Under the pieces are notes generated by a model. The model was not told the DNA's origin. It was given only the letters and a program-made list of their open reading frames with translations, and searched no databases. Positions 22,559 through 53,989 of a stretch of 64,000 bases of DNA are shown here, one piece after another. The translations under genes and the position numbers were made by a program. Origin of the DNA: an uncultured beta proteobacterium (GTDB taxonomy: Bacteria; Pseudomonadota; Gammaproteobacteria; Burkholderiales; SG8-39); contig CAWHBL010000008.1 of the NCBI GenBank assembly GCA_963827555.1, positions 69,135-133,134 of the forward strand, in the 5' to 3' direction. Positions within the stretch are counted from its first letter, which is position 1; every line of letters begins with the position of its first letter.

Positions 22559-22573
22559 CGGAACGGGCATGAA

Positions 22574-36353: not shown

Positions 36354-36386
36354 GATTAAGCGGCGCGTGGAACGCGCCGCTTAATC
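36354..36386 (+). other. Perfect 14-bp intercistronic stem-loop between oxc and frc, with no T-tract
   Basis: GATTAAGCGGCGCG-TGGAA-CGCGCCGCTTAATC, 55 nt after the oxc stop and 60 nt before the frc start. Confidence 0.6.
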
Positions 36387-36445
36387 GGCCGCGGGGCCCG
36401 TGGCTATACTCGGCCCCAGGAACGTTTTGGAGTCAGGAGCGGGGG

Positions 36446-37732: not shown

Positions 37733-37819
37733 TCCGTCACGCAGGCGTGACGCACTGAAGTCGGCGCGTTGGAGCGGACGGCAAGCCGCCGCTCAACGCA
37801 CCGGAGTCTGGAGAAAATC

Positions 37820-38752
37820 ATGCGTGTTGCGATCATTGGGCAGCAGGATTTCGGCAAAGCGGTGCTCGACGCGTTCCTCGCCCGCGGTGACGACGTCGCC
37901 GGCGTCTTCTGCGCGCCGGAGAAGGCGGGCGCGAAAGCCGACCCGCTGCGCACCGCGGCGGAGGAGAAGGGCCTGAAGGTGTTCCAGTTCGCGTCCCTCC
38001 GCGCACCGGAGGCGCACGCGGCGCTGGAGGGGCTGAAGCCGGACATCGGCATCATGGCGTACGTGCTCCAGTTCGCCCCCGACAGCCTGGTGAAGATCCC
38101 GAAGAACGGGACGCTGCAGTACCACCCGTCGCTGCTCCCGAAGTACCGCGGCCCGAGCTCGATCAACTGGCCGATCATCAAGGGCGAGAAAAAGACCGGC
38201 CTCACGATCTTCCGGCCGAACGAGGGGCTCGACGAAGGGCCCGTCGTGCTGCAGAAGGAGACCCCGATCGGGCCGGACGACACGCTCGGCTCGGTCTACT
38301 TCGAGCGCCTCTTCCCGATGGGCGTGCAGGCGATGATCGAAGCCGCCGACCTCGTCATCGCCGGGAAGCACAAGGAGGTCGTCCAGGACGAGGCCGCGGC
38401 GTCGTACGAGGGCTGGTGCCGGGCGGCCGAGGCGAAGATCGGCTGGGCGACGCACGTCGACTTCGTCTACGACCTCATCCGGGGCACCAACCCCGCCCCG
38501 GGCGCCTGGACCACCCTGAACGGCAAGAAGGTCCAGATCTTCGACGCGCGGAAGCACCTCTTCCGCACCTTCGGCGCGGTGAAGGGCAAGCCGGGCGAAG
38601 TGTCCGAGGTGACCGCCACGAGTTTCTTCGTCACCGCGCAGGGCGGCCGGATCGAGGTGCTCAAGGCGAAGACGGAGGACGGCAAGAAGGCGTCGGGCCC
38701 GGAGGTCGCCGCCGCCGCGGGCATCACCGCGGGCACGCTGCTCGGCACCTGA
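37820..38752 (+). CDS. Formyltransferase-fold protein resembling the N-terminal hydrolase domain of 10-formyl-THF dehydrogenase or Fmt-like enzymes; last gene of the oxc-frc unit
   Basis: MRVAIIGQQDFGKAVLDAF, YHPSLLPKYRGPSSINWPII, GLDEGPVV. C-terminal Fmt-like beta-barrel (NPAPGAWT...GKKVQIF). A terminator follows. Confidence 0.8.
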   Translation: MRVAIIGQQDFGKAVLDAFLARGDDVAGVFCAPEKAGAKADPLRTAAEEKGLKVFQFASLRAPEAHAALEGLKPDIGIMAYVLQFAPDSLVKIPKNGTLQYHPSLLPKYRGPSSINWPIIKGEKKTGLTIFRPNEGLDEGPVVLQKETPIGPDDTLGSVYFERLFPMGVQAMIEAADLVIAGKHKEVVQDEAAASYEGWCRAAEAKIGWATHVDFVYDLIRGTNPAPGAWTTLNGKKVQIFDARKHLFRTFGAVKGKPGEVSEVTATSFFVTAQGGRIEVLKAKTEDGKKASGPEVAAAAGITAGTLLGT

Positions 38753-38777
38753 CCGGCCTGCTCACCGTCAAGCGAAG

Positions 38778-38797
38778 GCCCCCGAAAGGGGGCTTTT
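38778..38797 (+). terminator. Rho-independent terminator after the oxc-frc-formyltransferase unit
   Basis: GCCCCC-GAAA-GGGGGC followed by TTTT, 26 nt after the stop codon. Confidence 0.7.
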
Positions 38798-39190
38798 GCA
38801 TTTGGTCGGGCCGTTGCGAGAGGGCGAGCCGCTTCAAGGGCGCCGCTCCCGCGCTCGGCAGGTCACCGCTCGTTCGCACGCGGCGTCCGCTCGTCACGCG
38901 GGTGACGAGATCCCGGCAAAAAAGTTGACGGATTTCATATCCGACTGCAAGAATGGGGATTATGCTGCTGTTTCTACAGCAACTTAGGGCTGTAGCAGGG
39001 GAGGTGGGCGTGCCCCGAGGGCCGCGCGCGGACGTTCGCCACGCGTGGCCTTCGCCGTCGAGGACTTCTTGCCGCTTGCAGTTCGCGTCGATCGGGGCGC
39101 GAGAAGCGCGAGCGTAGAATCCCCCCGCACGCGCGCCCGAGAAGAATCCGAGCCGAAGAACAACGACAAGAACACACGGGGACGCCTCAG

Positions 39191-41737
39191 GTGAAGACGG
39201 CAGGTTTCTGGCGGAAGGACTGGTTTCTCGGCCTCGCGGTCGCGGTCGTCCTGTTCCTCTTCGCCGGCTCCGACCTGATCCAGAGCCTCGAGCGCAAGGC
39301 CTACGACCTCGGCGTACGCGCCACCGACCGCACGCCGTCCGACCGCATCGCGGTCGTCGCGATCGACGACGCGAGCATCCAGAACATCGGTCGCTGGCCG
39401 TGGCCGCGCGACGTGCACGCCAAGGTCACCGATCTCCTCGCCGGCGGGAAGGCGAAGGCGGTCGGCAACCTCGTGTTCTTCACCGAGCCGCAGCTCGATC
39501 CCGGCCTCGCGTACGTCAACAAGCTCGTGGCCGAGTACCAGAAGGCGGTGCCCGATCCGAACGCGGTCGAGCAGGGTTCCCCGCTCGCGATGATTGGCCA
39601 GCTGCTCGGCGAGGCGGAAAGCGCCCTCAACACCGACCGCAAGCTGGCGGCGAGCTACGAGAAGGCGGGCAACGTGCTGCTGCCGATGCTCTTCGAGCTC
39701 GGCGAGCCGCGCGGCAAACCCGACCGACCGCTGCCGGACTACGTCACGCGGAACGCGCTTGGCGCGGTCGAGACCGCTTCGCCCGAGCTGCCCTTCCCGA
39801 CGTCGGCGAACGTGACCTACCCGATCGACCTGGTGGGCAGGCACACCGCCGGAATCGGCCATTTAAACGCGCGCATCGACGTCGACGGCGCAGTCCGGTC
39901 GGAGCCGCTGGTGCTCGCCCACTTCGACCGGTTCTACCCGTCGCTCGCGACGCTGATCGCGGCGAAGAGCCTCAACCTCGGCGTCGGCGACATCAAGGTC
40001 GGCCTGGGCGAGGGCGTCAGCGTCGGCAACCTTCGGATCAAGACCGATCCGCAGTTGCAGATGTATACGTACTTCTACAAGGACCGCGACGGGCGGCCGG
40101 CGTTCGCGATCGATTCGTTCTTCGACCTGTACTCGGGCAAGGTGCCGGCCGACAAGTACCGCGACAAGATCGTGCTGATCGGCCCGACCGCCGCGGGCCT
40201 CGGCTTCGCCTCGGCGACGCCGGTGTCGCCCGCCATGGCGCCGGTGCTGACGCTCGCCCACGGCGTCTCGTCGATCCTGCTGGAGCACTTCTTCGTCGTG
40301 CCGAGCTGGGGCGTGTGGGCCGAGTACGCCGCGTACCTCGCGGTCGCACTGTATCTGATGATGATGCTGCCGCGGCTCAAGGCGGGGATGGCGGCGGCGG
40401 TGACCGGAACGCTGCTCGTCGCGCTCATCGCCGCCCATTTCGGGCTGATGACGGCGAAGGGCATGTGGCTGCAGCTGATGCTGCCGGCGGTGCTGCTCGT
40501 CCTCGGGCACGTCCTGCTCACGACCAAGCGCTTCCTCATGACCGAGCGCGGGAAGGAGCGGTCGGAGGCGGAGTCGGCGGCATCGAACCGGATGCTCGGG
40601 CTCGCCTATCAGGGCCAGGGCCAGCTCGACATGGCGCTCGACTACTTCCGCAGGTGCCCGGTCGACGACACGGTGCTCGACAACCTCTACAACCTCGCGC
40701 TCGACTTCGAGCGCAAGCGCCAGTTCAACAAGGCCGAAAACGTGTTCCGCTACATGGTGGAGCACAATCCGAAGTTCCGCGACCTCGGCGAGCGGCTCTC
40801 GCGCGCGAAGCAGCTCTCCGAGACGGTGATCTTCGGCGGCGGCGGACCGAAGGGCCACACCCGGATCCTCACCGGCGGGCAGGTGGAAAAGCCGATGCTC
40901 GGCCGCTACCAGGTCGAGAAGGAACTGGGCAAGGGTGCGATGGGCGTCGTCTACCGGGGCAAGGATCCGAAGATCGGCCGCGTGGTGGCGATCAAAACCA
41001 TGGCGCTCGCCCAGGAGTTCGAGGCCGACGAGCTCGAGGACGTGAAGGCGCGCTTCTTCCGCGAGGCGGAGACCGCCGGCCGGCTCAACCACCCCAACAT
41101 CGTCACCATCTTCGACGCCGGCGAGGAGCACGACCTCGCGTACATCGCGATGGAATTCCTGAAGGGCCGCGACCTCGTGCAGTACACGAAGCCGGGGGCG
41201 CTGCTGCCGGTGGAGAAGGTCGTGTCGATCACCGCCCGCGTCGCCAACGCACTCGGCTACGCCCACCGCCAGAACGTCGTCCACCGCGACGTGAAGCCGG
41301 CCAACGTCATGTACGAGCCGGAGTCGGACACCGTGAAGGTCACCGACTTCGGCATCGCCCGCATCACCGACTCGTCGAAGACCAAGACCGGCATGGTGCT
41401 CGGGACGCCGTCCTACATGTCGCCCGAGCAGCTTGCCGGCAAGAAGATCGACGGGCGCTCGGACCTCTTCTCGCTGTCGGTGAGCCTGTATCAGCTGCTC
41501 TGCGGCCGGCTGCCGTTCGACGGCGAGTCGATGGCGCAGCTCATGTTCAAGATCGCGAACGAGCCGGCGCCGGACATCCTGCAGTTCAACCCGAAGCTCC
41601 CGCCGGCGCTGGTGGCGTTCCTCGACCGGGCGATGGCGAAGGAGACGGAGGCGCGCTTCCAGACCGGGGACGAGTTCTCGCAGGCGCTGCGCGCGTCCGT
41701 GGGCACCCAGAAGCCGCAGGTCGACATCACGATATAA
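39191..41737 (+). CDS. CHASE2 sensor-domain transmembrane Ser/Thr protein kinase (Hanks type)
   Basis: GTG start. CHASE2 hallmark IAVVAIDDASIQNIGRWPWPRDVHA. TM cluster at roughly residues 360-450. TPR-like linker. Kinase motifs LGKGAMGVVY, VAIKTM, HRDVKPANVM, DFGIA, GTPSYMSPEQ. Confidence 0.9.
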   Translation: MKTAGFWRKDWFLGLAVAVVLFLFAGSDLIQSLERKAYDLGVRATDRTPSDRIAVVAIDDASIQNIGRWPWPRDVHAKVTDLLAGGKAKAVGNLVFFTEPQLDPGLAYVNKLVAEYQKAVPDPNAVEQGSPLAMIGQLLGEAESALNTDRKLAASYEKAGNVLLPMLFELGEPRGKPDRPLPDYVTRNALGAVETASPELPFPTSANVTYPIDLVGRHTAGIGHLNARIDVDGAVRSEPLVLAHFDRFYPSLATLIAAKSLNLGVGDIKVGLGEGVSVGNLRIKTDPQLQMYTYFYKDRDGRPAFAIDSFFDLYSGKVPADKYRDKIVLIGPTAAGLGFASATPVSPAMAPVLTLAHGVSSILLEHFFVVPSWGVWAEYAAYLAVALYLMMMLPRLKAGMAAAVTGTLLVALIAAHFGLMTAKGMWLQLMLPAVLLVLGHVLLTTKRFLMTERGKERSEAESAASNRMLGLAYQGQGQLDMALDYFRRCPVDDTVLDNLYNLALDFERKRQFNKAENVFRYMVEHNPKFRDLGERLSRAKQLSETVIFGGGGPKGHTRILTGGQVEKPMLGRYQVEKELGKGAMGVVYRGKDPKIGRVVAIKTMALAQEFEADELEDVKARFFREAETAGRLNHPNIVTIFDAGEEHDLAYIAMEFLKGRDLVQYTKPGALLPVEKVVSITARVANALGYAHRQNVVHRDVKPANVMYEPESDTVKVTDFGIARITDSSKTKTGMVLGTPSYMSPEQLAGKKIDGRSDLFSLSVSLYQLLCGRLPFDGESMAQLMFKIANEPAPDILQFNPKLPPALVAFLDRAMAKETEARFQTGDEFSQALRASVGTQKPQVDITI

Positions 41738-41739
41738 GA

Positions 41740-42564
41740 ATGAATTTGAGCCAGGCCCTCGAAATCGCCAGTTGCACCGACCCCGGCATCGTGCGCTCGC
41801 ACAATGAGGACTCGATCGCGGCCGACGCCTCGAAGGGTCTGGTCGTGCTCGCCGACGGCATGGGCGGCTACAACGCGGGCGAGGTCGCGAGCGGCATGGC
41901 GACCACCGTCATCACCACCGAGCTGCAGCACCTGCTCGAGGACACCCCGCCGTACAAGATCGAGCCGGCGACCGGCAAGCCGTTCGCCGACCGGCTGCTG
42001 CGCGAGCAGATCGCCAAGGCGAACACGTCGATTTTCCAGGCCGCGCAGAGCCAGCCGCAGTACTCGGGCATGGGCACCACCCTGGTAGCGGCCATGTTCT
42101 ACGACAACAAGGTGACGCTCGCGCACATCGGCGACTCCCGCGCCTACCGCCTGCGCGGCGAGGCGTTCGAGCAGCTCACCCGCGACCATTCGCTGCTCCA
42201 GGAGCAGATCGACAGCGGGATGATCACGCCGGAGCAGGCGAAGTTCTCGCAGAACAAGAACCTGGTGACGCGCGCGCTCGGGATCGACCCGACGGTCGAG
42301 CCGGAGATCCAGGTCTACCCGACCCAGACCGGCGACGTCTACCTGCTCTGTTCGGACGGGCTGAACGACATGGTCACCGACGAGGACATCGGCATGACGC
42401 TCCAGACGCTGTCGGCGAACCTCCGGCTCGCCGCGCAGCAGCTGGTGCAGATGGCGAACGACAACGGCGGGCGCGACAACGTGTCCGTGATTCTGGTACG
42501 GGTGGTGAAGGACTACGCCGCACCGCGCGGCTGGGTCGCGAGGTTCTTCAGCTGGCTGCGATAG
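41740..42564 (+). CDS. PP2C-family Ser/Thr protein phosphatase
   Basis: Starts 2 nt after the kinase stop. RSHNEDS, VLADGMGG, GTTLVAA, HIGDSRAY, LCSDGL, DNVSVILV. Confidence 0.9.
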   Translation: MNLSQALEIASCTDPGIVRSHNEDSIAADASKGLVVLADGMGGYNAGEVASGMATTVITTELQHLLEDTPPYKIEPATGKPFADRLLREQIAKANTSIFQAAQSQPQYSGMGTTLVAAMFYDNKVTLAHIGDSRAYRLRGEAFEQLTRDHSLLQEQIDSGMITPEQAKFSQNKNLVTRALGIDPTVEPEIQVYPTQTGDVYLLCSDGLNDMVTDEDIGMTLQTLSANLRLAAQQLVQMANDNGGRDNVSVILVRVVKDYAAPRGWVARFFSWLR

Positions 42565-42586
42565 GAACTCGCGCTTTTTTGGGGAA

Positions 42587-43456
42587 ATGGCTATGCCTGC
42601 AAAGTTGATACTCAGTATGGACGGGTTGGTGCTCAAGGAGATCACGCTCGGGAAGGAGCGCACCACCATCGGGCGCAAGCCGCACAACGACATCCAGATC
42701 GACAATCTGGCGGTGTCCGGCGAGCACGCGGTGATCGTGACGATCCTCAACGATTCGTTCCTCGAGGACCTCGGCTCGACCAACGGCACGCTGGTGAACG
42801 GCCAGCCGATCAAGAAGCACTTCCTGCAGTCGAACGACGTGATCGAGCTCGGCAAGTACAAGCTGAAGTACATCAACGACCAGGCCGGGAAGACGACCGC
42901 GCCGCAGGACTTCGAGAAGACCATGGTCCTGCGACCCGGCGCCGCGCCCAAGCCCGGCGGCGCACCGGCCCCCGCCGCCGCGACGTCGCAGGCCATGCCG
43001 ACCATGTCGACCTCGCAACCCTCCCCGGCGATGTCGACCTCGCAGCCGATGAGGTCGGCGGGGCCCGCGACCCTGCCGCCCGCGCCACCGCCCGCGCCGT
43101 CGGCGTCGCAGCCGATGGCTACTTCGCAGGGGATGCCGACGATGGGCACCTCGCAGCCGCTGTCCGCGTCGCAGCCGATCGCGGCCGGGGGCAAGGTGGC
43201 GGCGATCCAGATCCTCTCCGGCGCGAACGCCGGCAAGGAGATGGAGCTCACCAAGGCGCTCACCACCCTCGGCAAGCCGGGCGTGCAGGTCGCGGTCATC
43301 ACCAAGCGGCCGCAGGGGTACTTCATCACCCACGTCGAGGGCGCGAACTTCCCGATCCTCAACGGCAAGCTGCTCGACGCGCAGGCGCATCCGCTCGGCG
43401 ACCACGACATCGTCGAGCTCGCCGGCGTGAAGATGGAGTTCTTCTACAAGACCTGA
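42587..43456 (+). CDS. FHA-domain protein: canonical N-terminal FHA, low-complexity linker with seven [ST]SQ repeats, degenerate FHA-like C-terminal domain
   Basis: N-terminal TTIGRKPHNDIQIDNLAVSGEHAVI...GSTNGTLVNG carries the conserved G-R, S-x-x-H and N-G positions. The C-terminal domain (LGKPGVQVAVI...ILNGKLL) lacks the Arg/Ser/His set. Confidence 0.88.
   Translation: MAMPAKLILSMDGLVLKEITLGKERTTIGRKPHNDIQIDNLAVSGEHAVIVTILNDSFLEDLGSTNGTLVNGQPIKKHFLQSNDVIELGKYKLKYINDQAGKTTAPQDFEKTMVLRPGAAPKPGGAPAPAAATSQAMPTMSTSQPSPAMSTSQPMRSAGPATLPPAPPPAPSASQPMATSQGMPTMGTSQPLSASQPIAAGGKVAAIQILSGANAGKEMELTKALTTLGKPGVQVAVITKRPQGYFITHVEGANFPILNGKLLDAQAHPLGDHDIVELAGVKMEFFYKT
42980..43177 (+). repeat. Imperfect in-frame coding repeats giving seven [AST][ST]SQ[PAG] motifs
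   Basis: ATSQA, STSQP, STSQP, SASQP, ATSQG, GTSQP, SASQP. The recurring DNA core is TCGCAGCC(G). Confidence 0.8.
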
Positions 43457-43544
43457 GCCGGGCGCCGCGACCCCCGGCCGAGCCGAACGCTGAAGCGCCG
43501 ATGACCGTCGCTCATCGCGCATCCTTCGTCGTCGACCGCGGCCG

Positions 43545-45767
43545 GTGAAGCAGTACGCCGTCCGGATCGCGCTTGGCCTCGCGGTCCTCGCCGCGTTCCT
43601 CGGCCACGCCGCGAAGTTCTACCGCATCCCGTTCGTCGACCAGCTCGACCGCATCATCTACGACACGCGGCTCCGCCTGACGATGCCGCGCGACCTCGAC
43701 GAGCGCATCGTCATCCTCGACATCGACGAGAAGAGTGTGGCGGCGCCCGAGCTCGGGCAGTGGCCGTGGAGCCGCGACGTCGTCGCCGGCCTGGTCGAGA
43801 AGCTGTTCGACAGGTACGGCGTCCTGATCCTCGGCTTCGACGTGGTGTTCGCCGAGCCCGACCGCTCGAGCGGGCTGCGCGTCCTCGACGGCCTGGCGAA
43901 GGGTCCGCTGAAGGACGTCCCCGACTTCCAGGCCGCGCTGGCGGAGCTGCGGCCGCGGCTCGACCACGACGCGCAGTTCGTGCGGACGATCAAGGGGCGG
44001 CCGGTGGTGCTCGGCTACTACCTTACGAGCGATCGCGACGCGCGCACGAGCGGGGTACTGCCGCCGCCGGTGCTCGCGCCCGGGACGTTCGCGAACCGGC
44101 CGATCGCGTTCACGTCGTGGACCGGGTACGGCGCCAATCTCGCCGACTTCCAGGCCGCGGCGGCGAGCACCGGGCATTTCAACCCGATCGCGGACGAGGA
44201 CGGGATCAACCGGCGGGTGCCGATGCTCGCCGAATACAAGGGCGCGTACTACGAGCCGCTGTCGCTCGCGGTGATGCGCACGCTGCTCGGGTTTCCCCCG
44301 GTGGAGCCCGGCTACCCGCCGGGGAGCGTGCTCAACCGCAACTATGCCGGCCTGGAGTGGCTCGACGTGGGGAAGCTGCGCATCCCGGTCGACGAGAACG
44401 CGTGCGCGCTCGTGCCCTATCGCGGCCCCAAGGGCAGCTTCCGCTACGTTTCGCTCGCCGACGTGTACCACGACCGGGTCCCGGTCGAGGCGCTCAAGGG
44501 CCGGATCGCGCTCGTGGGCACGACTGCGCCGGGGCTCTTCGACCTGCGCGCGACGCCGGTGGGGGCCGCGTATCCCGGCGTCGAGGTCCATGCCAACCTG
44601 ATCGCCGGCATGCTCGACGGCAACATCAAGGCAAGACCGGCCTACGTGCTCGGCGCGGAAGTCATCCTGCTGCTCGTCGGCGGCCTGACGCTCGCGATCT
44701 GGCTGCCGTTTCTCAGCCCGTTCCTCGCCACGGCAGTGTCCGTCGCCGCGCTCGTGCTGATCATCGGCCTCAGCACCAGCGTGTGGCTGCACGCCGACCT
44801 CGTCCTGCCGCTCGCCGCGAGCCTGCTGATGACGATCGGCCTCTTCGGGCTCAACATGTCGTACGGCTACTTCGTGGAAACCCGATCCAAGCGCGAGCTG
44901 ACCGAGCGCTTCGGCGAGTACGTGCCGCCCGAGCTGGTCGACGAGATGGCGCGCGATCCGGCGAAGTACAGCATGGAGGGCAGGGACGAGGTCCTCACGG
45001 TGCTCTTCACCGACATCCGCGCGTTCACCTCGATCGCCGAGGGCCTCGACCCGAAGGCGCTGTCGGCGTTCATGAACGAGTTTCTCACCGCGATGAGCCT
45101 CGTCATCCGCACTCGCCGCGGCACGCTCGACAAGTACGTCGGCGACCAGATCATGGCCTTCTGGGGCGCGCCGGTCGCCGACGGGCAGCACGCGCGCCAG
45201 GCGGTCAGCGCCGCGCTCGCGATGCAGGCCGAGCTCGTGCGGCTGAACGAGCGCTTCAGGGCGCGCGGCTGGCGCCCGATCGAGATCGGGGTCGGCGCCA
45301 ACACCGGCCCGATGCGCGTCGGCGACATGGGCTCGAAGCTGCGCAAGGCCTACACTGTGATGGGCGACGCGGTGAACCTCGCCTCCCGCCTGGAAGGGCT
45401 GACCAAACAGTACGGCGTCGGGATCCTCGTCGGCCAGGCGACGCGCGACGCCGCGGCGGACGTGGTGTTCCGCGAGGTCGACCGCGTGCGCGTGAAGGGC
45501 AAGGGCGAACCGGTGGCGGTCTATGAGCCGCTCGGGCTGGAGGCCGAGGTAGGCAAGGCGCGGGCCGAGGAGCTTAAGCTCTGGGCGCAGGCACTCAAGG
45601 CCTACCGCAGCCAGGCGTGGGAGCAGGCGGAACTTGTGCTCTTCAACCTGCAGCGGCTCTACCCCGGGGCGCCACTTTATTCCTTTTACGCTCAGCGGGT
45701 TGCGCGGTATCGTGCCGATCCTCCGCCGCCCGGATGGGACGGCGTGACGACGTTCGAGACGAAGTGA
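43545..45767 (+). CDS. CHASE2 sensor-domain transmembrane class III nucleotidyl (adenylate/guanylate) cyclase
   Basis: GTG start. CHASE2 hallmark IVILDIDEKSVAAPELGQWPWSRDV. TM cluster. Cyclase core LTVLFTDIRAFTS, LDKYVGDQIMAFWGAP, IGVGANTGPMRVGDMG, VMGDAVNLASRLE. Confidence 0.9.
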   Translation: MKQYAVRIALGLAVLAAFLGHAAKFYRIPFVDQLDRIIYDTRLRLTMPRDLDERIVILDIDEKSVAAPELGQWPWSRDVVAGLVEKLFDRYGVLILGFDVVFAEPDRSSGLRVLDGLAKGPLKDVPDFQAALAELRPRLDHDAQFVRTIKGRPVVLGYYLTSDRDARTSGVLPPPVLAPGTFANRPIAFTSWTGYGANLADFQAAAASTGHFNPIADEDGINRRVPMLAEYKGAYYEPLSLAVMRTLLGFPPVEPGYPPGSVLNRNYAGLEWLDVGKLRIPVDENACALVPYRGPKGSFRYVSLADVYHDRVPVEALKGRIALVGTTAPGLFDLRATPVGAAYPGVEVHANLIAGMLDGNIKARPAYVLGAEVILLLVGGLTLAIWLPFLSPFLATAVSVAALVLIIGLSTSVWLHADLVLPLAASLLMTIGLFGLNMSYGYFVETRSKRELTERFGEYVPPELVDEMARDPAKYSMEGRDEVLTVLFTDIRAFTSIAEGLDPKALSAFMNEFLTAMSLVIRTRRGTLDKYVGDQIMAFWGAPVADGQHARQAVSAALAMQAELVRLNERFRARGWRPIEIGVGANTGPMRVGDMGSKLRKAYTVMGDAVNLASRLEGLTKQYGVGILVGQATRDAAADVVFREVDRVRVKGKGEPVAVYEPLGLEAEVGKARAEELKLWAQALKAYRSQAWEQAELVLFNLQRLYPGAPLYSFYAQRVARYRADPPPPGWDGVTTFETK

Positions 45768-45827
45768 CTACCCGACACACCACCGGGCATTGCGACCGGG
45801 GCTGACCGGCCTCAGCTACCAAGAATC

Positions 45828-46598
45828 ATGCGGATCCGGGTCCTCGGCTGCAGCGGCGGGATCGGTGGGCGCCACCTGCGCACCACCTCGATGCTGCTCG
45901 ACCGCGACATCCTGATCGACGCCGGCACCGGCGTCTGCGACCTCACGCTCGCCGAGCTCACACCGATCGACCACGTGTTCCTCACCCACTCGCACCTCGA
46001 CCACGTCGCGGCGATCCCGTTCATGGTCGACACCGTCGGCCAGATGCGCGACGAGCCGCTGACCGTGCACGCGATCCCGGCGACGATCGAGATCCTGAAG
46101 AACCACGTCTTCAACTGGTCGATCTGGCCGGATTTCACCCAGATCCCGAGCGCCGACCGCCCGTTCCTGCGCTACGAGACGATCGAGCTCGGCGCGTCGG
46201 CGGACCTCGGCGGCGGGCGCACGATCACCGCGCTCCCGGCCAACCACGTGGTGCCCGCGATCGGCTACCAGCTCGACAGCGGGAAGGGCAGCCTCGTCTT
46301 CACCGGCGACACCACCACCAACGACGAGCTGTGGGCGATCGTCAACAAGATCGCGAACCTCAAGCATCTCATCATCGAGTGCGCGTTCTGCAATCGCGAG
46401 AAGCAGCTCGCGATCATGTCGAAGCACCTGTGCCCGAGCATGCTCGCCGAGGAGCTCGCCAAGCTCGAGCGGAGCTGCGACATCTTCATCACTCATCTCA
46501 AGCCGGGCGAGATCGAGCTGACGATGGAGGAGATCGAGGAGTACGCGGGCCAGTACCGGCCGCGGATGCTCCAGAACAACCAGGTCCTCGAGTTCTAG
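45828..46598 (+). CDS. Class II 3',5'-cyclic-nucleotide phosphodiesterase (metallo-beta-lactamase fold)
   Basis: MRIRVLGCSGG, LIDAGTG, FLTHSHLDH, FTGDT, ITHLKP. Confidence 0.85.
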   Translation: MRIRVLGCSGGIGGRHLRTTSMLLDRDILIDAGTGVCDLTLAELTPIDHVFLTHSHLDHVAAIPFMVDTVGQMRDEPLTVHAIPATIEILKNHVFNWSIWPDFTQIPSADRPFLRYETIELGASADLGGGRTITALPANHVVPAIGYQLDSGKGSLVFTGDTTTNDELWAIVNKIANLKHLIIECAFCNREKQLAIMSKHLCPSMLAEELAKLERSCDIFITHLKPGEIELTMEEIEEYAGQYRPRMLQNNQVLEF

Positions 46599-46607
46599 GC
46601 GCCGGCC

Positions 46608-47681
46608 ATGGCCACCGAAAACGTAAGCATCCGGATCCTCAAGGCACTCGAACCCCTCTCGGCCCTGTCGGAGCAGCGGCTCACCGAGCTCGGCGAGCTC
46701 TGCGTCGTCGAGCGCGTCAGCAAGACGCTCGACCCGTTCCGCGTGAAAGGGGTGGCCGGCCAGCTCGTCTTCCTGCTGAAGGGCGAGCTCGCGCTCATCC
46801 TCGGCAACGGCAGCTCCGAGGTGTTGGTGGGCACGACCTCCGAGGCGCGCCACCCGCTCGGGCGCAAGACCCCGTTCGCCTACGCCAAGGCGATCACCGA
46901 CATCGAGCTCGTCCGCATCGACGAGGACCTGCTCGACATCATGGTCACCTGGGACCAGCTCGCCGCCGCCGACAAGACCGGTGCGCGCGCGTCCGAGAGC
47001 GGCGTGCCGTCGATGGCGAACTGGGCGATCCTGTCCGGCGTGTTCAGCATCAACAACCTCAAGTCGGGCGCGTTCGCGCAGCTCCCGACCGCGCACATCA
47101 ACGAGATGCTCAAGCGCTTCCAGCGGGTCGGAGCGAAGCGCGGGCAGGTCGTGATCCGCGAGGGCGACGCCGGCGACTACTACTACGTGCTCGAGGCCGG
47201 CAAGTGCCTGGTCGAGCGCAACGTCGGCGGCGTGTCGATGAAGCTCGCCGAGCTGAAGGGCGGCGACGCCTTCGGCGAGGAGGCGCTGGTCGCGAACGCG
47301 AAGCGCAACGCCACGGTAACGATGCTCGCGGAAGGCTCGCTCTTCAGGCTGGCGAAAGAGGATTTCAACGAGCTCCTCAAGAAGCCGCTGCTCCAGAGCG
47401 TGACGATGGAGCAGGCGCGGGCGAAGGTCGCCGGCGGCGGGCAGTGGATCGACACGCGCTACCCGTCCGAGTACCAGTACGACAAGCTCCAGGGCGCGAT
47501 CAACATCCCGCTCTCGGAGGTCAGGAACGCGGTCAAGGTGCTCGACCGGAGCCGGGAGTACGTCCTCTACTGCCAGAGCGGCCGCCGCAGCTCCGCGGCC
47601 GCGTTTCTGCTCGCGCAGCGCGGCTTCCGGGCGTTCGTCCTGGAGGGCGGGCTGCGGGGCGGCGCGGCGGGCGCGGGCTGA
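46608..47681 (+). CDS. Two cyclic-nucleotide-binding domains (first degenerate, second canonical) fused to a C-terminal rhodanese domain
   Basis: The second CNB domain has the phosphate-binding cassette GDAFGEEALVANAKRNATV. Rhodanese part: WIDTRYPSEY...VLYCQSGRRSSAAA with an active-site-loop Cys. Confidence 0.85.
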   Translation: MATENVSIRILKALEPLSALSEQRLTELGELCVVERVSKTLDPFRVKGVAGQLVFLLKGELALILGNGSSEVLVGTTSEARHPLGRKTPFAYAKAITDIELVRIDEDLLDIMVTWDQLAAADKTGARASESGVPSMANWAILSGVFSINNLKSGAFAQLPTAHINEMLKRFQRVGAKRGQVVIREGDAGDYYYVLEAGKCLVERNVGGVSMKLAELKGGDAFGEEALVANAKRNATVTMLAEGSLFRLAKEDFNELLKKPLLQSVTMEQARAKVAGGGQWIDTRYPSEYQYDKLQGAINIPLSEVRNAVKVLDRSREYVLYCQSGRRSSAAAFLLAQRGFRAFVLEGGLRGGAAGAG

Positions 47682-47958
47682 CCGCCGCGGGCGGATTCCT
47701 CCCGGCCCGGGTCTTGCATACTCGGCCCGATGGCGGGCGCGAAGGGTGCGCTCCAGGGTTACGACAGCATGCTCGGGGGTCGTTGTTTCGCTTGAAAAAA
47801 GCCGCAAGGAGCGGTGCCGCGCGGTTGCCCGGGCGCCGGGCGGACGCTAAATTTCGTGTTTGCCTCTCCGGGCGCAGTGGCGGCCGGAGCGGCGTTTCGC
47901 CGTGCGCGCCCGCCGGCGCGGCGACGGTATCGACGGCCATCCGACAGGACGTGACGCT

Positions 47959-50323
47959 ATGAGCGCAGTGCTTAGCCCCCATTCCGCCGCCGCCGGCGAC
48001 GTCAACACCCGGCTCGCGTTCCAGAAGTCCCTGCAGACCGTCACGAACCGGATCCACGCCACCAGCAACGTCGACGAGATCATGCTGGAGGTGTCGAGCG
48101 AGATCTGCAGCCTGTTCAACGCCGACCGGCTCACGATCTACGTCACGGCCGAGGACAAGGCGTCGATCATCTCCAAGGTCAAGACCGGCCTCAACTCGTT
48201 TCGCGACCTGAAGCTCCCGCTCGCCGAGCACTCGCTCGCCGGCTACGCCGGGATGTCGCGGAAGATGATGAACCTCCGCGACGTCTACGACGACGCCGAG
48301 CTGAAGAGCCACAACGCCAACCTGCGCTTCCTGCAGGAGGTGGACAAGCGCACCGGCTACCGCACCAAGCAGATGCTGGTGGCGCCGATCCTCGACGCGC
48401 CCGCGGGCGACCTGCTCGGCGTGGTCCAGCTGATCAACAGCAAGGCCGGCGGGCCGTTCAGCCCGCTCGCCGAAGAGGGCATGGTCGAGCTGTGCAAGAC
48501 GCTCGCGATCGCGCTCAAGCAGCGCGCGAAGCTCGCGATGCCGAAGTCGAAGTACGACTTCCTCGTCGCCGACGCGGAGATCTCGGCCGCCGAGCTCGAG
48601 ACCGCCGCGCGCAACGCGCGCAAGAAGGCGATCGACATCGAGACGGTGCTGGTCGAGGAGTGCAACGTCAAGCCGGCCTCGATCGGCGAAGCGCTCGCCA
48701 AGTTCTTCGGCGTCAAGTACGAGCCGTCACAAGCCGGACCGCGTCAAGCCGATGGATCTGCTCAAGAACCTCAAGCGCGAGTACGTCGCCGAGCACCAGT
48801 GGTGCCCGCTCGAGGAGAACCCGCAGGGGCTGCTGGTGATGTGCCTCGACCCGGAGCGGGTCAAGGCGTCGAGGGTCGTCAACAACATCTTCCCGAAGGC
48901 GCGGATCAAGTACGTCGTCACCACGCTCAAGGAGTTCAAGGATACGCTCGACCCGTTCTTCGGCGCCGCCGCCGACCTCGGCGACATCGGCGACCTGCTC
49001 GAGGGCCTGACCCCCGAGGAGGAAGGCGACCCGAACGCGACCGACGACCTCTCGGCGGCGGCCGACAACGAGCTGGTGAAGCTCGTGAACAAGATCATCG
49101 TCGACGCCTACAACCAGGGCGCCTCCGACATCCACATCGAGTCCTACCCGGGCAAGGCGAAGACCGAGATCCGGTTCCGCCGGGACGGGACGCTCGCGCC
49201 CTACATCGAGGTGCCGGCCTCCTACCGGAGCGCCCTCTGCGCGCGCCTCAAGATCATGTGCGACCTCGACATCTCCGAGCGCCGCAAGCCGCAGGACGGC
49301 AAGATCAAGTTCAAGAAGTTCGGTCCGCTCGACATCGAGCTGCGCGTGGCCACGATCCCGGTGCAGGGCGGCGTCGAGGACATCGTGATGCGTATCCTCG
49401 CCGCCGGCGAGCCGATCCCGCTCGACAAGCTGGGTCTCACGCCGCACAACCTGCCGCGGCTGAAAGCGGTCATCGAGAACCCGTACGGGTTGTTCTTCTG
49501 CTGCGGGCCGACCGGCTCGGGCAAGACGACCACGCTCCACTCGGTGCTCGGCCACCTCAACACGCCCGACACCAAGATCTGGACCGCGGAGGACCCGGTC
49601 GAGATCACGCAGAAGGGCCTGCGCCAGGTGCAGATCAACCGCAAGGCGGGGATGGACTTCCCGACGATCATGAAGGCGTTCCTGCGCGCCGACCCGGACA
49701 TCATCATGGTCGGCGAGATGCGCGACAAGGAGACGACCTCGATCGGCATCGAGGCCTCGCTCACCGGCCACCTCGTGTTCGCCACCCTGCACACGAACAG
49801 CGCGCCGGAATCGATCGTCCGACTGCTCGACATGGGCATGGACCCGTTCAACTTCGCCGATGCGCTGGTCGGCATCCTGGCGCAGCGACTCGCGAAGCGC
49901 CTGTGCGGGAAGTGCAAGCAGCCGTACAACCCGGGACAGGACGAGATCAAGGGACTGCTCCAGGAGTACTGCCAGGAGCTGCTCCACACGCCCGAGTTCA
50001 AGAAGGACGCGAAGGCCGGGTTCGAGCGCGTGTACAAGGACCTCGTCAAGACCTACGGCGACGACAAGGGCCAGTTCACGTTCTACCGCAAGGCCGGCTG
50101 CGACGCGTGCGGCAACTCCGGCTACAAGGGCCGGCTCGGCCTGCACGAGCTGCTGGTCGGCACCGACGCGATCAAGAAGAACATCCAGGAGCACGCGCGG
50201 GTCGCCGAGATGCTCGCGACCGCGCTCGAGGAAGGCATGCGCACGCTGAAGATGGACGGCATCGAGAAGGTCATGCAGGGCGTCACCGACATGGCCCAGG
50301 TCCGCGCGGTTTGCATCAAATAG
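47959..50323 (+). CDS. GAF - T2SSE_N - GspE/PilB-family hexameric secretion ATPase (orphan), one frame change as read
   Basis: GAF: NVDEIMLEVSSEICSLFNADRLTIYV...TGYRTKQMLVAPI...GVVQLINS. The frame changes near 48727-48730 between FFGVKYEP and KPDRVKPMDLLKNLKREY. ATPase: Walker A GPTGSGKTTT, Walker B DPDIIMVGEMRD, His box TGHLVFATLHTN, tetra-Cys CGKC...CDACG. Confidence 0.88.
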
Positions 50324-50368
50324 CTGCGGTGGTGAGCGATGACGCGCAGCACAGAAGCTATCGTACGA

Positions 50369-50428
50369 ACAAGGGGAGACTCCCCTTGTATATCCCCCAT
50401 GCTGGAACAAGGGGCTCCGCCCCTTGTT
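50369..50428 (+). terminator. Two tandem, related stem-loops after the ATPase gene
   Basis: ACAAGGGGA-GAC-TCCCCTTGT at 50369-50389 and AACAAGGGGC-TCC-GCCCCTTGTT at 50406-50428. Both are perfect stems sharing the ACAAGGGG/CCCCTTGT arms. Confidence 0.55.
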
Positions 50429-50475
50429 GATCCCCGGACTGCCGGGTTCGATTGAACTGATCAGGTGACTTTTCC

Positions 50476-52183
50476 ATGAGCACGGTACCCAGCCTGGTCG
50501 CGGTCGGCCGCGAAGTCGAGCGCGGCGACGACGGAACGCCGGCCGACCTCTTCCGGCGGCTCGAGCAGCTGAACGAGATCGGCGCGGCGCTGTCGCTCGA
50601 GAGGAACCTCAACGCGCTGCTCGAGAAGATCCTGCTCGCGGTCAAGGCGATCACCCGCGCCGACGGCGGCACGCTGTACCTGGTCGAAGGCGAGGGCGCC
50701 GAGCAGGTGCTGCGGTTCGAGATCGTCCGCACCGCCTCGCTCGACGTCGCGATGGGCGGCACCACCGGCAACCCGATCCCGTTCTACCCGATCCACCTGT
50801 TCAAGAACGGCGACCCGAACACCTCCATGGTGGCGGCGTTCGCGGCGCTCACCGGCCAGACGGTGAACATCGCCGACGCCTACACCGAGGAGGGGTTCGA
50901 CTTCTCCGGCACGCGCGCGTTCGACGCCAAGACCGGCTACCGCTCGCAGTCGTTCCTGACCGTGCCGATGAAGAACCACGAGGCCGAGATCATCGGCGTC
51001 CTGCAGCTGATCAACTGCCAGGACCCGGACACCGGGGCGATCGCCCCGTTCTCGCCGTCGGATCAGCGGCTCGCCGAGTCGCTCGCCTCGCAGGCGGCGA
51101 TCGCGCTCACCAACCGCGCGCTGATCAACCAGCTCGAGCACCTGTTCGAGTCGTTCATCAACATGATCAACGAGGCGATCGACGAGAAATCGCCCTACAC
51201 CGGCGGCCACTGCCAGCGGGTGCCGACAGCTGACGATGATGCTCGCCGAGGCGGTGAACGACACGTTGGACGGCCCGCTGTCCGAGTTCACCATGACCGA
51301 GAAGGACCGCTACGAGCTCCGGATCGCGGGCCTGCTCCACGACTGCGGCAAGATCACCACCCCGGTCCACGTCGTCGACAAGGCGACCAAGCTCGAGACG
51401 ATCTTCGACCGCATCAACCTGATCGACACCCGGTTCGAAGTGCTCAAGCGCGACGCCGAGATCGACGCGCTCAACAAGAAACTCGAGCTCGCGCGCGGGG
51501 CGGGGGTGGACGAGATCACCCGGCGCGACCGCACCTACGCGATCGACGAGGAGCTGCGTGACACCGTGCGCCAGATCGAGGAGGACCGCAAGTTCCTCCG
51601 CCGCTGCAACATCGGCAGCGAGTCGATGTCGAAGGAGGAGCAGGACCGCGCCACCCAGATCGGGCTCGGCTACAAATGGCGCGACCCGATCGGCAACACC
51701 GCCGACTTCCTCACCGACGACGAGCTGAAGAACCTCACCATCTCGCGCGGTACCCTCACCCAGGAGGAGCGCGAGATCATCAACCACCACATCGTCTCGA
51801 CGATCAAGATGCTCGAGGCGCTGCCGTGGCCGAAGCACCTGCGCAACGTGCCGGAGTACGCCGGCGGCCACCACGAGCGCATGGACGGCAAGGGCTACCC
51901 GCGCGGGCTCACGCGCGACCAGATGTCGGTGCAGGCGCGGGTGATGGGCATCGCCGACATCTTCGAGGCGCTGACCGCCAAGGACCGTCCGTACAAGAAG
52001 GGCAAGACCCTGTCCGAGTCGCTGCACATCCTCGGGAAGTTCAAGCTGAACGGCCACATCGACCCGGACCTCTTCGACGTGTTCATCCGCCGGCGCGTCT
52101 ACCTCAAGTACGCGGAGCAGTTCCTCGACGCGGAGCAGATCGACCGCGTCGACGAGTCGAAGATCCCGGGGTACGTGCCGTAA
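50476..52183 (+). CDS. GAF - HD-GYP cyclic-dinucleotide phosphodiesterase-type protein, one frame change as read
   Basis: GAF: LNALLEKILLAVKAITRADGGTLYLV...TGYRSQSFLTVPM...GVLQLINC. The frame changes near 51226 between GGHCQRVP and QLTMMLAEAV. HD-GYP: AGLLHDCGKI ... GGHHERMDGKGYPRGL. Confidence 0.88.
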
Positions 52184-53966: not shown

Positions 53967-53989
53967 GCGCTCCGCGCCCGCGGCCGCGT

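Follow-up and report, generated by a model that had tools for sequence, protein, structure and literature searches.

A conserved betaproteobacterial signalling cluster probably places a PilB-type hexameric ATPase, of the class that extends type IVa pili, under direct cyclic-nucleotide control. In our best reading, in which we infer the steps from cAMP onward from sequence, the ATPase would be a cAMP-gated PilB paralogue, with cross-talk from cAMP to c-di-GMP; this points to a direct route, not yet described, by which cAMP reaches a pilus motor. We studied the cluster in a 64,000-nt stretch of DNA from an uncultured beta proteobacterium (hereafter the window). An earlier note on this DNA had stated that no characterised system of this composition was known to its author, and our literature search likewise found no published description of the cluster.

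The cluster consists of eight co-directional genes on the + strand, separated by gaps of 2, 22, 88, 60, 9, 277 and 152 nt. In order, they encode a CHASE2-Ser/Thr kinase, a PP2C phosphatase, an FHA protein, a CHASE2-class III cyclase, a class II cyclic-nucleotide phosphodiesterase (PDE), a CNB-CNB-rhodanese protein, a GAF-MshEN-T2SSE ATPase and a GAF-HD-GYP protein. Pfam searches and open reading frame coordinates bore out the genes, positions, gaps and domain calls of the earlier note. Its observation was nevertheless confirmed only in part, as the run it described as uninterrupted contains one break each in the reading frames of the ATPase and HD-GYP genes, and its interpretation found partial support. 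The terminator that it had placed upstream is real and marks the 5' boundary of the cluster: this intrinsic terminator of the preceding formyltransferase gene (38772–38799, + strand) folds into a 12-bp GC-rich stem with a GAAA loop, followed by UUUUGCAUUU, with a minimum free energy of -24.5 kcal/mol (z-score -4.1). A sigma-70-like promoter candidate, identified by consensus match only (38925–38954, + strand; TTGACG, an 18-nt spacer and AAGAAT, with TG upstream; 9/12 matches), lies in the leader of ~390 nt.

The ATPase gene (47959–50323, + strand; 787 aa after removal of one extra base) encodes GAF, MshEN and T2SSE domains (Pfam) and a complete catalytic core, with Walker A and B motifs, a His box and the CxxC...CxxC pairs; in 80 relatives it is a single open reading frame of ~790 aa. 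PGAP labels the protein only as "GspE/PulE family protein". Its top NCBIfam match is PilB (TIGR02538, 472.7 bits, below the cut-off of 675.65), with GspE at 432.4, and its best PDB match is Myxococcus xanthus PilB (3jc8, E 1.5e-108). The ATPase therefore resembles PilB in its best family and structure matches, but differs in scoring below the PilB equivalog cut-off and in never adjoining pilC or pilD in 81 loci.

A second connection to pili comes from a gene for a type IVa major-pilin-like protein of 137 aa, found by motif scan at 63556–63969 on the + strand (Pfam N_methyl 7.1e-10, Pilin 1.8e-8). The cluster usually sits shortly before such a gene: 40/62 relatives, from several families, have one further downstream in the same orientation, and in 30/62 it lies no more than 1.5 kb past the HD-GYP gene. 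Upstream of the pilin gene in the window is a motif match to a sigma-54-type -24/-12 promoter, TGGCACGGTTAGTGCT (63494–63509, + strand). This motif occurred in 26 of the 45 pilin genes examined, against a background expectation of 0.007 per 220 nt; relative to the conserved Gly codon, 25 of these genes have it 80–104 nt upstream and the other has it at -198. The earlier note had reported no GspF/PilC, secretin, prepilin peptidase, PilMNOPQ or T6SS structural gene in the window. Indeed, GspF/PilC, secretin, PilD, PilMNOPQ and T6SS gave no Pfam match in the coding-like stretches scanned (most of the window, all but a few short or low-scoring stretches), but the pilin gene is there. The PilB matches and the pilin gene do not support its description of the ATPase as an orphan whose output is unknown.

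We consider it unlikely that the ATPase is truly an orphan that does not drive type IV pili, and that it instead energises some other machine, for a fibre, secretion or uptake, or acts as a nucleotide-regulated signalling ATPase, with the pilin adjacency being inherited synteny without a functional link. Such a reading would fit the scores, which reach neither the PilB nor the GspE equivalog cut-off, the insertion that this family alone has between its two CxxC pairs, and the lack of pilC, pilD, pilM-Q and gspF nearby in 81 loci. It would also fit the independent sigma-54 promoter of the pilin gene and the absence of this gene beside the Oxalobacteraceae and Nitrosomonas variants, owing to which the pilin link is one of synteny, seen in some members of the family. 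However, PilB proteins are the best family and structure matches, the downstream pilin gene recurs in several families, no alternative machine genes are conserved near the ATPase, and there is a report from Burkholderiales of several PilB paralogues that serve a single pilus machinery (PMC3164672).

If the ATPase is a PilB paralogue, how might it be controlled? Gating through the MshEN domain, as the earlier note had suggested, is unlikely: the c-di-GMP-binding motif is not conserved in this domain, which leaves the GAF domain as the probable sensor. This GAF domain is highly conserved among 80 orthologues, matches the cAMP-binding GAF domain of CyaB2 (1ykd, E 1.9e-24) and is predicted to belong to the cNMP-binding subfamily. 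The pattern TGYR...P...GV.QLIN..PFSP is common to it and to the GAF domain of the HD-GYP protein (50476–52183, + strand; 568 aa after removal of one extra base; Pfam GAF, HD/HD_5). The latter protein carries the motifs HDCGK and HHERMDGKGYP, and its HD-GYP domain, which contains an insertion of ~115 aa, is predicted to be catalytically complete. In the PDB it is matched best by PmGH (4mcw) and by the GAF-A domain of PDE5, and its gene is retained in 42/46 loci. Tlr0485 is cited in a preprint as a cAMP-activated GAF-HD-GYP c-di-GMP phosphodiesterase (bioRxiv 10.1101/2021.11.05.467447).

The cyclase and the PDE could supply and remove the ligand. The class III (IIIb-like) cyclase (43545–45767, + strand; 740 aa; Pfam CHASE2 1.1e-55, Guanylate_cyc 9.9e-20) has P. 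aeruginosa CyaB (3r5g) among its best PDB matches. It has the same Lys (LDKYVGD) and Thr (YTVMGD) as CyaB, and its specificity residues are thus of the adenylate type; in the guanylate cyclase Cya2 (2w01), by contrast, Glu takes the place of this Lys. Together with the cNMP-type GAF domains and the Tlr0485 precedent, these residues narrow what the earlier note had left as an unknown signalling currency of the GAF/HD-GYP pair. The PDE (45828–46598, + strand; 256 aa; MBL fold; Pfam PDEase_II 5.6e-17, Lactamase_B_2) bears the HSHLDH signature, and its gene is the most frequently retained neighbour of the ATPase gene (41/46 loci). The CNB-rhodanese protein (46608–47681, + strand; 357 aa) comprises a degenerate CNB, a canonical CNB (Pfam cNMP_binding, residues 177–259) with the phosphate-binding cassette FGEEAL...RNAT, and a rhodanese domain (residues 268–351) with the active-site loop CQSGRR. 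Its first CNB had no Pfam match, but its AlphaFold model (pLDDT ~70–90 in the N-terminal part) matches the tandem-CNB regulatory subunits of PKA/PKG over 260–290 columns (Foldseek E ~1e-14), a predicted fold that upholds the earlier call of two CNB domains.

The first three genes encode a phosphorylation set. The CHASE2-TM-TPR-Ser/Thr kinase (39191–41737, + strand; 848 aa; Pfam CHASE2 1.3e-48, TPR, Pkinase 5.4e-53) has all of the VAIK, HRD and DFG motifs and shares 26% identity with the cyclase in the CHASE2 domain, and its gene is present in 24/46 fully flanked relatives. The ATG of the PP2C phosphatase gene (41740–42564, + strand; 274 aa; Pfam PP2C_2 and PP2C) lies 2 nt past the kinase stop codon, and its product matches NCBIfam Stp1/IreP at 252.9 bits, above the cut-off of 230. 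The FHA protein (42587–43456, + strand; Pfam FHA 9.6e-22) has an N-terminal FHA domain, a Pro/Ser/Thr-rich linker and an FHA-like C-terminal region, with the FHA domain alone conserved in most relatives.

We propose that the CHASE2 cyclase would sense a cue in the envelope or outside the cell and raise cAMP, which the class II PDE would reset. Binding of cAMP to the GAF domain of the ATPase may switch motor activity, or docking onto a PilC/PilM platform encoded elsewhere. The same cAMP would activate the GAF-HD-GYP enzyme and lower c-di-GMP, as described for Tlr0485, and could also occupy the CNB-rhodanese protein. The paralogous CHASE2 kinase, with the PP2C phosphatase and the FHA reader, might add a phospho-threonine layer on one of these components. 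The output would be the extension of pili made from the adjacent pilin.

Both frame breaks, which the earlier note had missed, bear on whether this pathway is intact in the window. The reading frame of the ATPase gene breaks near 48727–48728, inside MshEN, leaving GAF in frame 0 and MshEN and T2SSE in frame 1; that of the HD-GYP gene breaks near 51226–51228, where the change is likewise from frame 0, which holds GAF, to frame 1, which holds HD/HD_5. Neither gene has a length that is a multiple of 3, and each carries a 1-nt insertion compared to relatives (L001–L003, L082 and P0001 for the ATPase). These breaks are most likely single-base assembly errors rather than biology, because the window has other genes, of housekeeping type, with this kind of damage: at least five further breaks occur in the same 64 kb, in genes for FTHFS (twice, giving three pieces), FDH-alpha, TctC and Zn-ADH, with series of 1-nt insertions at 37104–37378 and 59061–59541. 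It is improbable that the breaks are real, in which case both genes would be pseudogenes and the module would be losing its output arm, even though both insertions lie in non-homopolymer contexts (ccgTcacaag, ccgAcagctg), unlike the classic long-read error pattern, two neighbouring genes of one module are affected, and the nearest relatives have undergone real gene loss within the cluster. Past each break, the GC3 coding signal is undiminished (0.95–1.0) with no additional lesions, the close relative L082 has intact ATPase (787 aa) and HD-GYP (568 aa) genes, and sister assemblies of the same clade bear random breaks of their own.

The earlier note had proposed gene-neighbourhood conservation as a check, and the cluster passed it. 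Among 46 species-level loci with full flanks, 22 contain the kinase, PP2C, FHA, cyclase, PDE, GAF-ATPase and GAF-HD-GYP genes, and 10 of these also have the CNB-rhodanese gene exactly as in the window. Carriers of the cluster include many soil and water Betaproteobacteria. Gallionellaceae, Rhodocyclaceae, Sulfuricellaceae and further lineages of Burkholderiales have kept the order and orientation of the genes, and gaps in relatives are short, with medians of 4–13 nt at most junctions. In Oxalobacteraceae, the cyclase, PDE and HD-GYP genes lie on the opposite strand yet still abut the ATPase gene. These findings support the eight genes as a genuine cluster, kept in evolution, with the ATPase at its centre, and such linkage, which survives rearrangement, argues against the view that independent signalling genes came together by chance or through history alone and share no pathway. 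So does the matching domain logic of a cyclase, a PDE and three types of cyclic-nucleotide receiver. We therefore hold a mere signalling island to be quite improbable, despite variable content (~40% of clusters have the CNB-rhodanese gene, both CHASE2 proteins are lost in the nearest relatives, L001 and L003, and Nitrosomonas keeps only PDE and ATPase) and the 277- and 152-nt gaps in the window, which leave room for internal promoters. The CHASE2 losses indicate that the cluster-encoded cyclase is dispensable in some lineages.

Anti-phage signalling, whether kinase-based or by a Pycsar-type system that pairs a cyclase with a CNB effector, is highly improbable. PADLOC gave matches to PD-T4-6 and mad6 for the kinase, to PycC (E 2e-26) for the cyclase and to Pycsar effectors (E ~1e-5) for the CNB, and the PDE has a weak Anti-Pycsar_Apyc1 Pfam match, but the PADLOC matches are confined to generic Pkinase, class III cyclase and CNB domains. 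The cluster lacks any effector of the TIR, transmembrane or nuclease kind, and its cyclase sits in the membrane, with CHASE2 as the sensor and residues of the adenylate type. The locus is chromosomal, stably syntenic across families and beside housekeeping and pilin genes, which sets it apart from mobile defence islands.

Between the cluster and the pilin gene lies a likely glycosylation or modification island (52275–63304; Pfam), with an FkbM methyltransferase, two TPR-GT41 glycosyltransferases and further TPR proteins; among the latter, one gave a weak match to Wzy_C_2 (20.4 bits, below the Pfam cut-off of 28.5). In eight relatives, a Wzy_C O-antigen-ligase-like gene lies directly 3' of the pilin gene. 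The window also encodes a conserved protein of ~117 aa that had no Pfam match (56140–56496, - strand); members of its family are present in L082 and lie convergently, directly past the HD-GYP gene, in 15 loci.

Because the window is ~70% G+C, six-frame ORF lists were flooded with spurious ORFs; genes in the window were defined by third-position GC (GC3). An ORF and GC3 check found all eight + strand genes between 39191 and 52183, with the gaps between them that an earlier note had read from the sequence, and Pfam confirmed that note's domain assignments: CHASE2-TPR-Pkinase, PP2C, FHA and CHASE2-Guanylate_cyc for genes 1–4, and PDEase_II on an MBL fold, cNMP_binding-Rhodanese, GAF + MshEN + T2SSE and GAF + HD/HD_5 for genes 5–8. 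The kinase has VAIK, HRD and DFG motifs, the PP2C protein scores above the NCBIfam Stp1 cut-off, and the CNB-rhodanese protein carries a CQSGRR active-site loop in its rhodanese domain and an FGEEAL...RNAT cassette in its second CNB domain. Pfam detected this second CNB domain but not the first, for which aligning a profile of the first 125 residues to that of the CNB region gave a weak match (E 0.0097 over 93 columns). An AlphaFold model of the protein, made with 30 homologues (N-terminal pLDDT ~70–90), resembled the tandem-CNB regulatory subunits of PKA/PKG over 260–290 columns (Foldseek E ~1e-14). The call of two CNB domains thus holds at the level of the predicted fold, with a first domain that appears degenerate. 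An exact-sequence look-up with the window's CNB-rhodanese protein returned no match. Among the matches listed, the nearest relatives are MAGs of uncultured Burkholderiales (betaproteobacteria); the ATPase core has 93% amino-acid identity with that of one relative, L001, and a JGI metagenome contig, L082, has ~90–93% nucleotide identity over the whole cluster.

The seventh gene (47959–50323) encodes a motor ATPase of 787 aa once a single-base frame break, described below, is repaired. The repaired protein matched PilB best among NCBIfam models (TIGR02538; 472.7 bits), followed by GspE (TIGR02533; 432.4 bits) and TfpB (377 bits), with the first two scores under their equivalog cut-offs of 675.65 and 630.25. 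M. xanthus PilB (3jc8) was the best PDB match, ahead of Thermus PilF, Geobacter PilB and GspE, and orthologues carry the PGAP names 'GspE/PulE family protein' or 'ATPase, T2SS/T4P/T4SS family'. Together, these scores, ranks and names indicate a distinct PilB-like family rather than a PilB equivalog. Walker A (GPTGSGKT), the Walker B/Asp box, the His box and a CxxC...CxxC Zn motif are all present in the repaired ATPase, whose T2SSE core matches Pfam at 7.5e-114, and the catalytic motifs and Cys pairs are conserved in the 80 orthologues listed. With PilB of M. xanthus, P. aeruginosa and Geobacter the protein shares the MshEN/T2SSE_N plus T2SSE core, the tetracysteine motif and linkage to a sigma-54-driven type IVa pilin gene. 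Unlike PilB, it has an extra N-terminal cNMP-type GAF domain of ~195 aa, a longer insert between the CxxC pairs and a sub-equivalog score, never adjoins pilC/pilD in the loci listed, and is embedded in a cAMP/c-di-GMP/phospho-threonine signalling cluster.

The earlier note had called this ATPase an orphan, a description at odds with its best match, PilB, and with its neighbours. A type IVa pilin of ~150 aa was the commonest extra family in the relatives listed. Among the loci listed, 62 have at least 1.5 kb of downstream flank, and a downstream, same-strand type IVa pilin gene was found in 40 of them, lying no more than 1.5 kb from the HD-GYP stop codon in 30 of the 62 (typically 200–350 nt). 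An O-antigen-ligase (Wzy_C) gene directly follows the pilin gene in eight loci, as in pilin-glycosylation loci. The window itself has one type IVa pilin gene (63556–63969, + strand; N_methyl and Pilin Pfam matches), preceded by a sigma-54 -24/-12 motif, TGGCACGGTTAGTGCT, at 63494–63509. It lies upstream of 26 of the 45 pilin genes of this kind, where the background expectation is 0.007 per 220 nt. This is the classical major-pilin arrangement and makes the pilin gene a separate transcription unit.

About 11 kb separate the HD-GYP and pilin genes in the window, a stretch that encodes two TPR-GT41 glycosyltransferases and an FkbM methyltransferase together with TPR proteins; one of the latter gave a weak Wzy_C_2 match under the Pfam cut-off. 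The two TPR + GT41 (O-GlcNAc-transferase-like) genes are convergent and are followed by the FkbM methyltransferase gene (together 52275–56098); similar TPR-GT41/FkbM-like genes occupy the corresponding position in 12–13 relatives, and the genes may serve pilin or surface glycosylation. A ~117-aa protein without a Pfam match is encoded on the minus strand at 56140–56496. Its homologue lies convergent and directly 3' of the HD-GYP gene in 15 relatives and in L082, so this could be a further component of the module that has escaped notice. Within the ORF of a TPR protein (61463–63304), ARAGORN called a 94-nt tRNA-Pro(CGG) at 62808–62901; Rfam reported no tRNA there at gathering thresholds, and the call is probably a false positive.

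In agreement with the earlier note, the window stretches scanned gave no Pfam match to PilC/GspF, secretin, PilD, PilMNOPQ or T6SS genes. No pilC or pilD gene is conserved within ±10 kb in the 80 loci listed, no second ATPase was found within the ±10 kb flanks of the loci, and T2SS genes (gspF, gspD or a pseudopilin) were found neither in the scanned stretches of the window nor in the relatives listed. These absences would suit an orphan ATPase, or a motor that drives something other than a pilus, but the recurrent pilin gene and the PilB-first ranking make such a role unlikely in our view. A single pilus machinery served by several PilB paralogues has been reported in Burkholderiales (PMC3164672).

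The cluster had been read as one uninterrupted run, which overlooked two frame breaks that the GC3 plot and alignments revealed in the ATPase gene and in the HD-GYP gene (50476–52183; 568 aa when repaired). In the GC3 frame plot, coding signal leaves frame 0 for frame 1 at about 48700 in the former and about 51200 in the latter. Across its break, the ATPase reads ...EALAKFFGVKYEP in frame 0 and ...KPDRVKPMDLLKNLKREYVAEHQW in frame 1, which places the break inside the MshEN domain; the long frame-0 ORF at 47860–50430 is a read-through, not a gene. Nucleotide alignments with four relatives (L001, L002, L003 and L082) showed exactly one surplus window base per site, in the contexts ccgTcacaag at 48727/8 and ccgAcagctg at 51226–8. 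A 91% identical relative, P0001, reads EPHKPD over the first site, and the window has the P0001 sequence plus one T. In the 80 relatives listed, the ATPase (median ~795 aa) and the HD-GYP protein (~550 aa) are each encoded by a single ORF, and the genes called in L082 encode 787 and 568 aa, the lengths of the repaired window genes. Programmed frameshifting was rejected, since the reading frame runs through both sites in L082 and in all 80 relatives listed.

Other genes in the window are broken in the same manner with continuous Pfam profile coverage: the FTHFS gene (27841–29531) runs through three frames, and the genes for FDH-alpha (formate dehydrogenase alpha subunit, molybdopterin; 22571–25382), TctC (6095–7061) and a Zn-dependent alcohol dehydrogenase (7068–8001, minus strand) run through two frames each. 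These split housekeeping-type genes indicate window-wide single-base indel errors. Runs of 1-nt insertions at 37104–37378 and 59061–59541, compared with four independent relatives (L001, L003, L081 and L082), look like local low-quality assembly stretches, the first of them with seven insertions and one deletion in 275 nt of an frc/CoA_transf_3 gene. Sister assemblies have breaks of their own, with the kinase split in L081 and out-of-frame stretches in another relative, P0002. The breaks in the ATPase and HD-GYP genes, although their contexts are not homopolymers, are most probably assembly indels. Real breaks would make both genes pseudogenes in this strain, a reading compatible with the others but one that we hold to be improbable.

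The earlier note had proposed gene-order conservation as a test of the cluster, and the order was conserved in relatives. When a single genome from each GTDB species was scanned, at least 80 loci had an ATPase at 68–93% identity. Carriers among the matches listed include Rhodocyclaceae, Azonexaceae, Sterolibacteriaceae, Gallionella/Sideroxydans, Sulfuricellaceae, Nitrosomonas, Methyloversatilis and Propionivibrio, as well as the Oxalobacteraceae Undibacterium, Noviherbaspirillum, Janthinobacterium and Rugamonas. We assessed synteny by tblastn with each window protein and by all-against-all ORF clustering in the 46 loci listed that have at least 9 kb of upstream and at least 2.5 kb of downstream flank. 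The genes for the kinase, PP2C, FHA protein, cyclase, PDE, GAF-ATPase and GAF-HD-GYP protein occur in window order in 22 of these 46, with the CNB-rhodanese gene also present in 10 of the 22; the HD-GYP gene is kept in 42 and the PDE gene in 41 of the 46. Intergenic gaps in relatives have medians of 4–13 nt at most junctions and 74–97 nt before the ATPase gene.

Oxalobacteraceae have their cyclase, HD-GYP and PDE genes on the opposite strand, divergent from the ATPase gene, and Nitrosomonas retains the PDE and ATPase genes. That genes stay together through rearrangement argues most strongly for cooperation between cNMP metabolism and the GAF-ATPase. A signalling island of unrelated genes is, we think, quite improbable. 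L001 (4681–7100) and L003, the two nearest relatives among the matches listed, have each undergone a clean deletion of both CHASE2 genes, for kinase and cyclase, leaving short 5'/3' remnants and retaining the PP2C, FHA, PDE, CNB-rhodanese, ATPase and HD-GYP genes. This joint loss hints that the two CHASE2 sensors, whose CHASE2 domains are 26% identical, function as a pair.

Which nucleotide might the ATPase sense? Like MshE of V. cholerae (PMC5013675), it has an MshEN fold and is a GspE-family motor that would be regulated by a nucleotide-sensing module at its N terminus. Wang et al. defined the c-di-GMP-binding MshEN motif as two tandem 24-residue stretches of RLGxx(L/V/I)(L/V/I)xxG(L/V/I)(L/V/I)xxxxLxxxLxxQ (PMC5013675). 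Unlike in MshE, these 24-residue motifs are not conserved in the cluster ATPase: the family consensus reads TKYDYLVADAVLSAAEFELATRSA and DIEDVLIDEFQVKLPAIGAALSKF (TKYDYLV..., DIEDVLI...), and neither motif retains the RLG, the central Gly or the terminal Gln. We therefore rejected c-di-GMP sensing by MshEN on motif grounds. The GAF domain (residues 1–195) is strongly conserved in the 80 orthologues listed. Its matches are the two GAF domains of Anabaena CyaB2, which binds cAMP (1ykd; E 1.9e-24), and those of PDE2A, PDE10A and PDE5. The GAF domain of the HD-GYP protein (residues 25–215) matches PDE5 GAF-A (E 8.5e-19) and PmGH. By sequence, both belong to the cNMP-binding subfamily (PDE2/5/10, CyaB1/2), including its D..TGY.T....P and (Q/E)hhN...F region, and they have in common the pocket-half signature TGYR..L..P...GV.QLIN...PFSP. 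The sensor of the ATPase is thus likely its GAF domain, with cAMP or cGMP as the predicted ligand.

The cluster also encodes a candidate source and sink for cAMP. The cyclase catalytic domain is closest to P. aeruginosa CyaB (3r5g; E 2.3e-34). LDKYVGD contains the adenine-specifying Lys of CyaB, at a position that is Glu in the guanylate cyclase Cya2 (2w01), and YTVMGD contains the partner Thr, again as in CyaB. Metal-binding Asp residues are present in FTDI and GD, and the transition-state Asn and Arg in AVNLASR; the predicted product is therefore cAMP, and the residues that characterise a class III adenylate cyclase (IIIb) are all found. The PDE has the HSHLDH class II signature and scores 62.3 bits against PDEase_II (PF02112; Pfam cut-off 23.7). 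As in the CyaB/CpdA/Vfr/Pil-Chp system of P. aeruginosa, the cluster combines a class IIIb cyclase with a dedicated PDE and a putative pilus output. In Pseudomonas, cAMP works transcriptionally, via Vfr. The cluster differs in that its cAMP-type receiver is fused to the motor ATPase, its cyclase sensor is CHASE2 rather than MASE2, and its PDE is of class II rather than the CpdA type.

The HD-GYP protein has both catalytic motifs, HDCGK and GGHHERMDGKGYP (HHERMDGKGYP), with a Pfam HD_5 match of 1.4e-42, and its HD-GYP domain aligns to PmGH and V-cGAP3. The best PDB match of the protein is PmGH (4mcw). An insertion of ~115 aa (51390–51740; residues ~306–422) splits the domain into two matched stretches and resembles the helical insertion of GAF-associated HD-GYP proteins of the LIC_11189 type (PMC12943098). 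The GAF-HD-GYP architecture and the complete HD and HHExxDGxGYP motifs are shared with PmGH and with Tlr0485 of Thermosynechococcus, whose c-di-GMP phosphodiesterase activity, as cited in a preprint (bioRxiv 10.1101/2021.11.05.467447), needs cAMP on the GAF domain. Unlike Tlr0485 and PmGH, the cluster gene is fixed beside a presumed cAMP source and sink and a pilus-motor ATPase.

The first three genes recall the Thr-phosphorylation switch PpkA-PppA-Fha1 of the H1-T6SS, where genes for a Ser/Thr kinase of the membrane, a PP2C phosphatase and an FHA protein likewise sit together beside that of a machine ATPase. Unlike that system, the kinase sensor is CHASE2 and no T6SS genes were found in the scanned stretches of the window or in the relatives listed; the FHA protein scores 49.7 bits against TagH (TIGR03354), far under the cut-off of 120.25. 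A Pycsar-like defence function could draw on the PADLOC matches, but these are to generic domains only, for which we rejected a defence-system reading, and with CNB domains fused to rhodanese rather than to a TIR or transmembrane effector, adenylate-type residues in the cyclase, and stable chromosomal synteny instead of a mobile defence context, it is hardly credible.

Type IV pilus extension motors are known to be controlled by c-di-GMP via MshEN, by FimX-PilZ adaptors, by polarity GTPases and by transcriptional cAMP-Vfr. For the cluster we propose the following mechanism, which we hold to be somewhat more likely than not. A cue at the CHASE2 cyclase would raise cAMP, and the class II PDE would reset it. 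Three receivers would respond. Through its GAF domain, the PilB-like motor would change in activity, hexamer state or docking; through its own GAF domain, the HD-GYP enzyme would lower c-di-GMP; the third receiver would be the CNB-rhodanese protein. The paralogous CHASE2 kinase, with the PP2C and FHA proteins, would add a phospho-threonine input, and the output would be the extension of pili built of the nearby pilin, with the platform supplied by genes in another part of the genome. A bolder reading, possible but some way from probable, makes the GAF-PilB protein a second extension motor, gated by cAMP, that either takes the place of canonical PilB on the type IVa pilus platform or competes with it there. 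An extracellular cue to the two paralogous CHASE2 receptors, one a cyclase and one a kinase, would then turn on extension in seconds and need no transcription, and the same cAMP pulse would at once lower c-di-GMP by way of the GAF-HD-GYP enzyme.

Full-text literature searches (GAF with PilB/GspE; CHASE2 with cyclase, HD-GYP and pilus; FHA/PP2C; pilBCD) turned up neither a GAF-fused PilB/GspE nor the cluster itself. All the parts belong to established families, and their logic is similar to that of pilus-motor regulation already described, so the cluster is not categorically new. A cAMP-type GAF domain on a PilB-class ATPase with its own cyclase and PDE would be a direct, post-translational route from cAMP to the motor. 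If the second-motor reading were true, it would be the first direct link from cAMP to a pilus motor, within a hard-wired cAMP, c-di-GMP and phospho-threonine node common to nitrifier, iron-oxidiser and Rhodocyclaceae lineages. It would bear on surface colonisation and on biofilm or floc behaviour of nitrifying, iron-oxidising and wastewater bacteria. With an HD-GYP enzyme of a cAMP-responsive type built in, the cluster is a compact, genetically tractable candidate for cAMP/c-di-GMP cross-talk with Ser/Thr phosphorylation added. It occurs in at least 80 species-level genomes, including Nitrosomonas, Gallionella/Sideroxydans, Rhodocyclaceae and Oxalobacteraceae, and because some carriers are cultured isolates, the hypothesis can be tested now.

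Across the whole window, Rfam at gathering thresholds reported no RNA family; the 390-nt, 277-nt and 152-nt spacers thus contain no riboswitch or leader of a known type. A hairpin at 38772–38799 was missed by the terminator scan because its T-run is short, and was confirmed by folding. Twin hairpins with identical 8-nt stem arms, ACAAGGGG/CCCCTTGT, lie in the ATPase-to-HD-GYP spacer (50369–50389 and 50407–50427); whole-stem folding gave -14.2 and -17.5 kcal/mol, and neither has a T-tract. They have no other copy in the window and no counterpart in the 80 relatives listed, and we therefore rejected them as a conserved regulatory element. Upstream of the cluster lie genes for a TPP enzyme (oxalyl-CoA-decarboxylase-like; 34416–36299), a family III CoA-transferase (36452–37732) and a formyltransferase (37769–38752), with a divergent single-CNB protein on the minus strand (33775–34401). 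Elsewhere the window carries genes for C1/oxalate metabolism, for Tct transporters, for EF-G and for functions of that kind. The upstream neighbours (33775–38752) look like an oxalate/formate set, and the three metabolic genes are syntenic in close relatives only.
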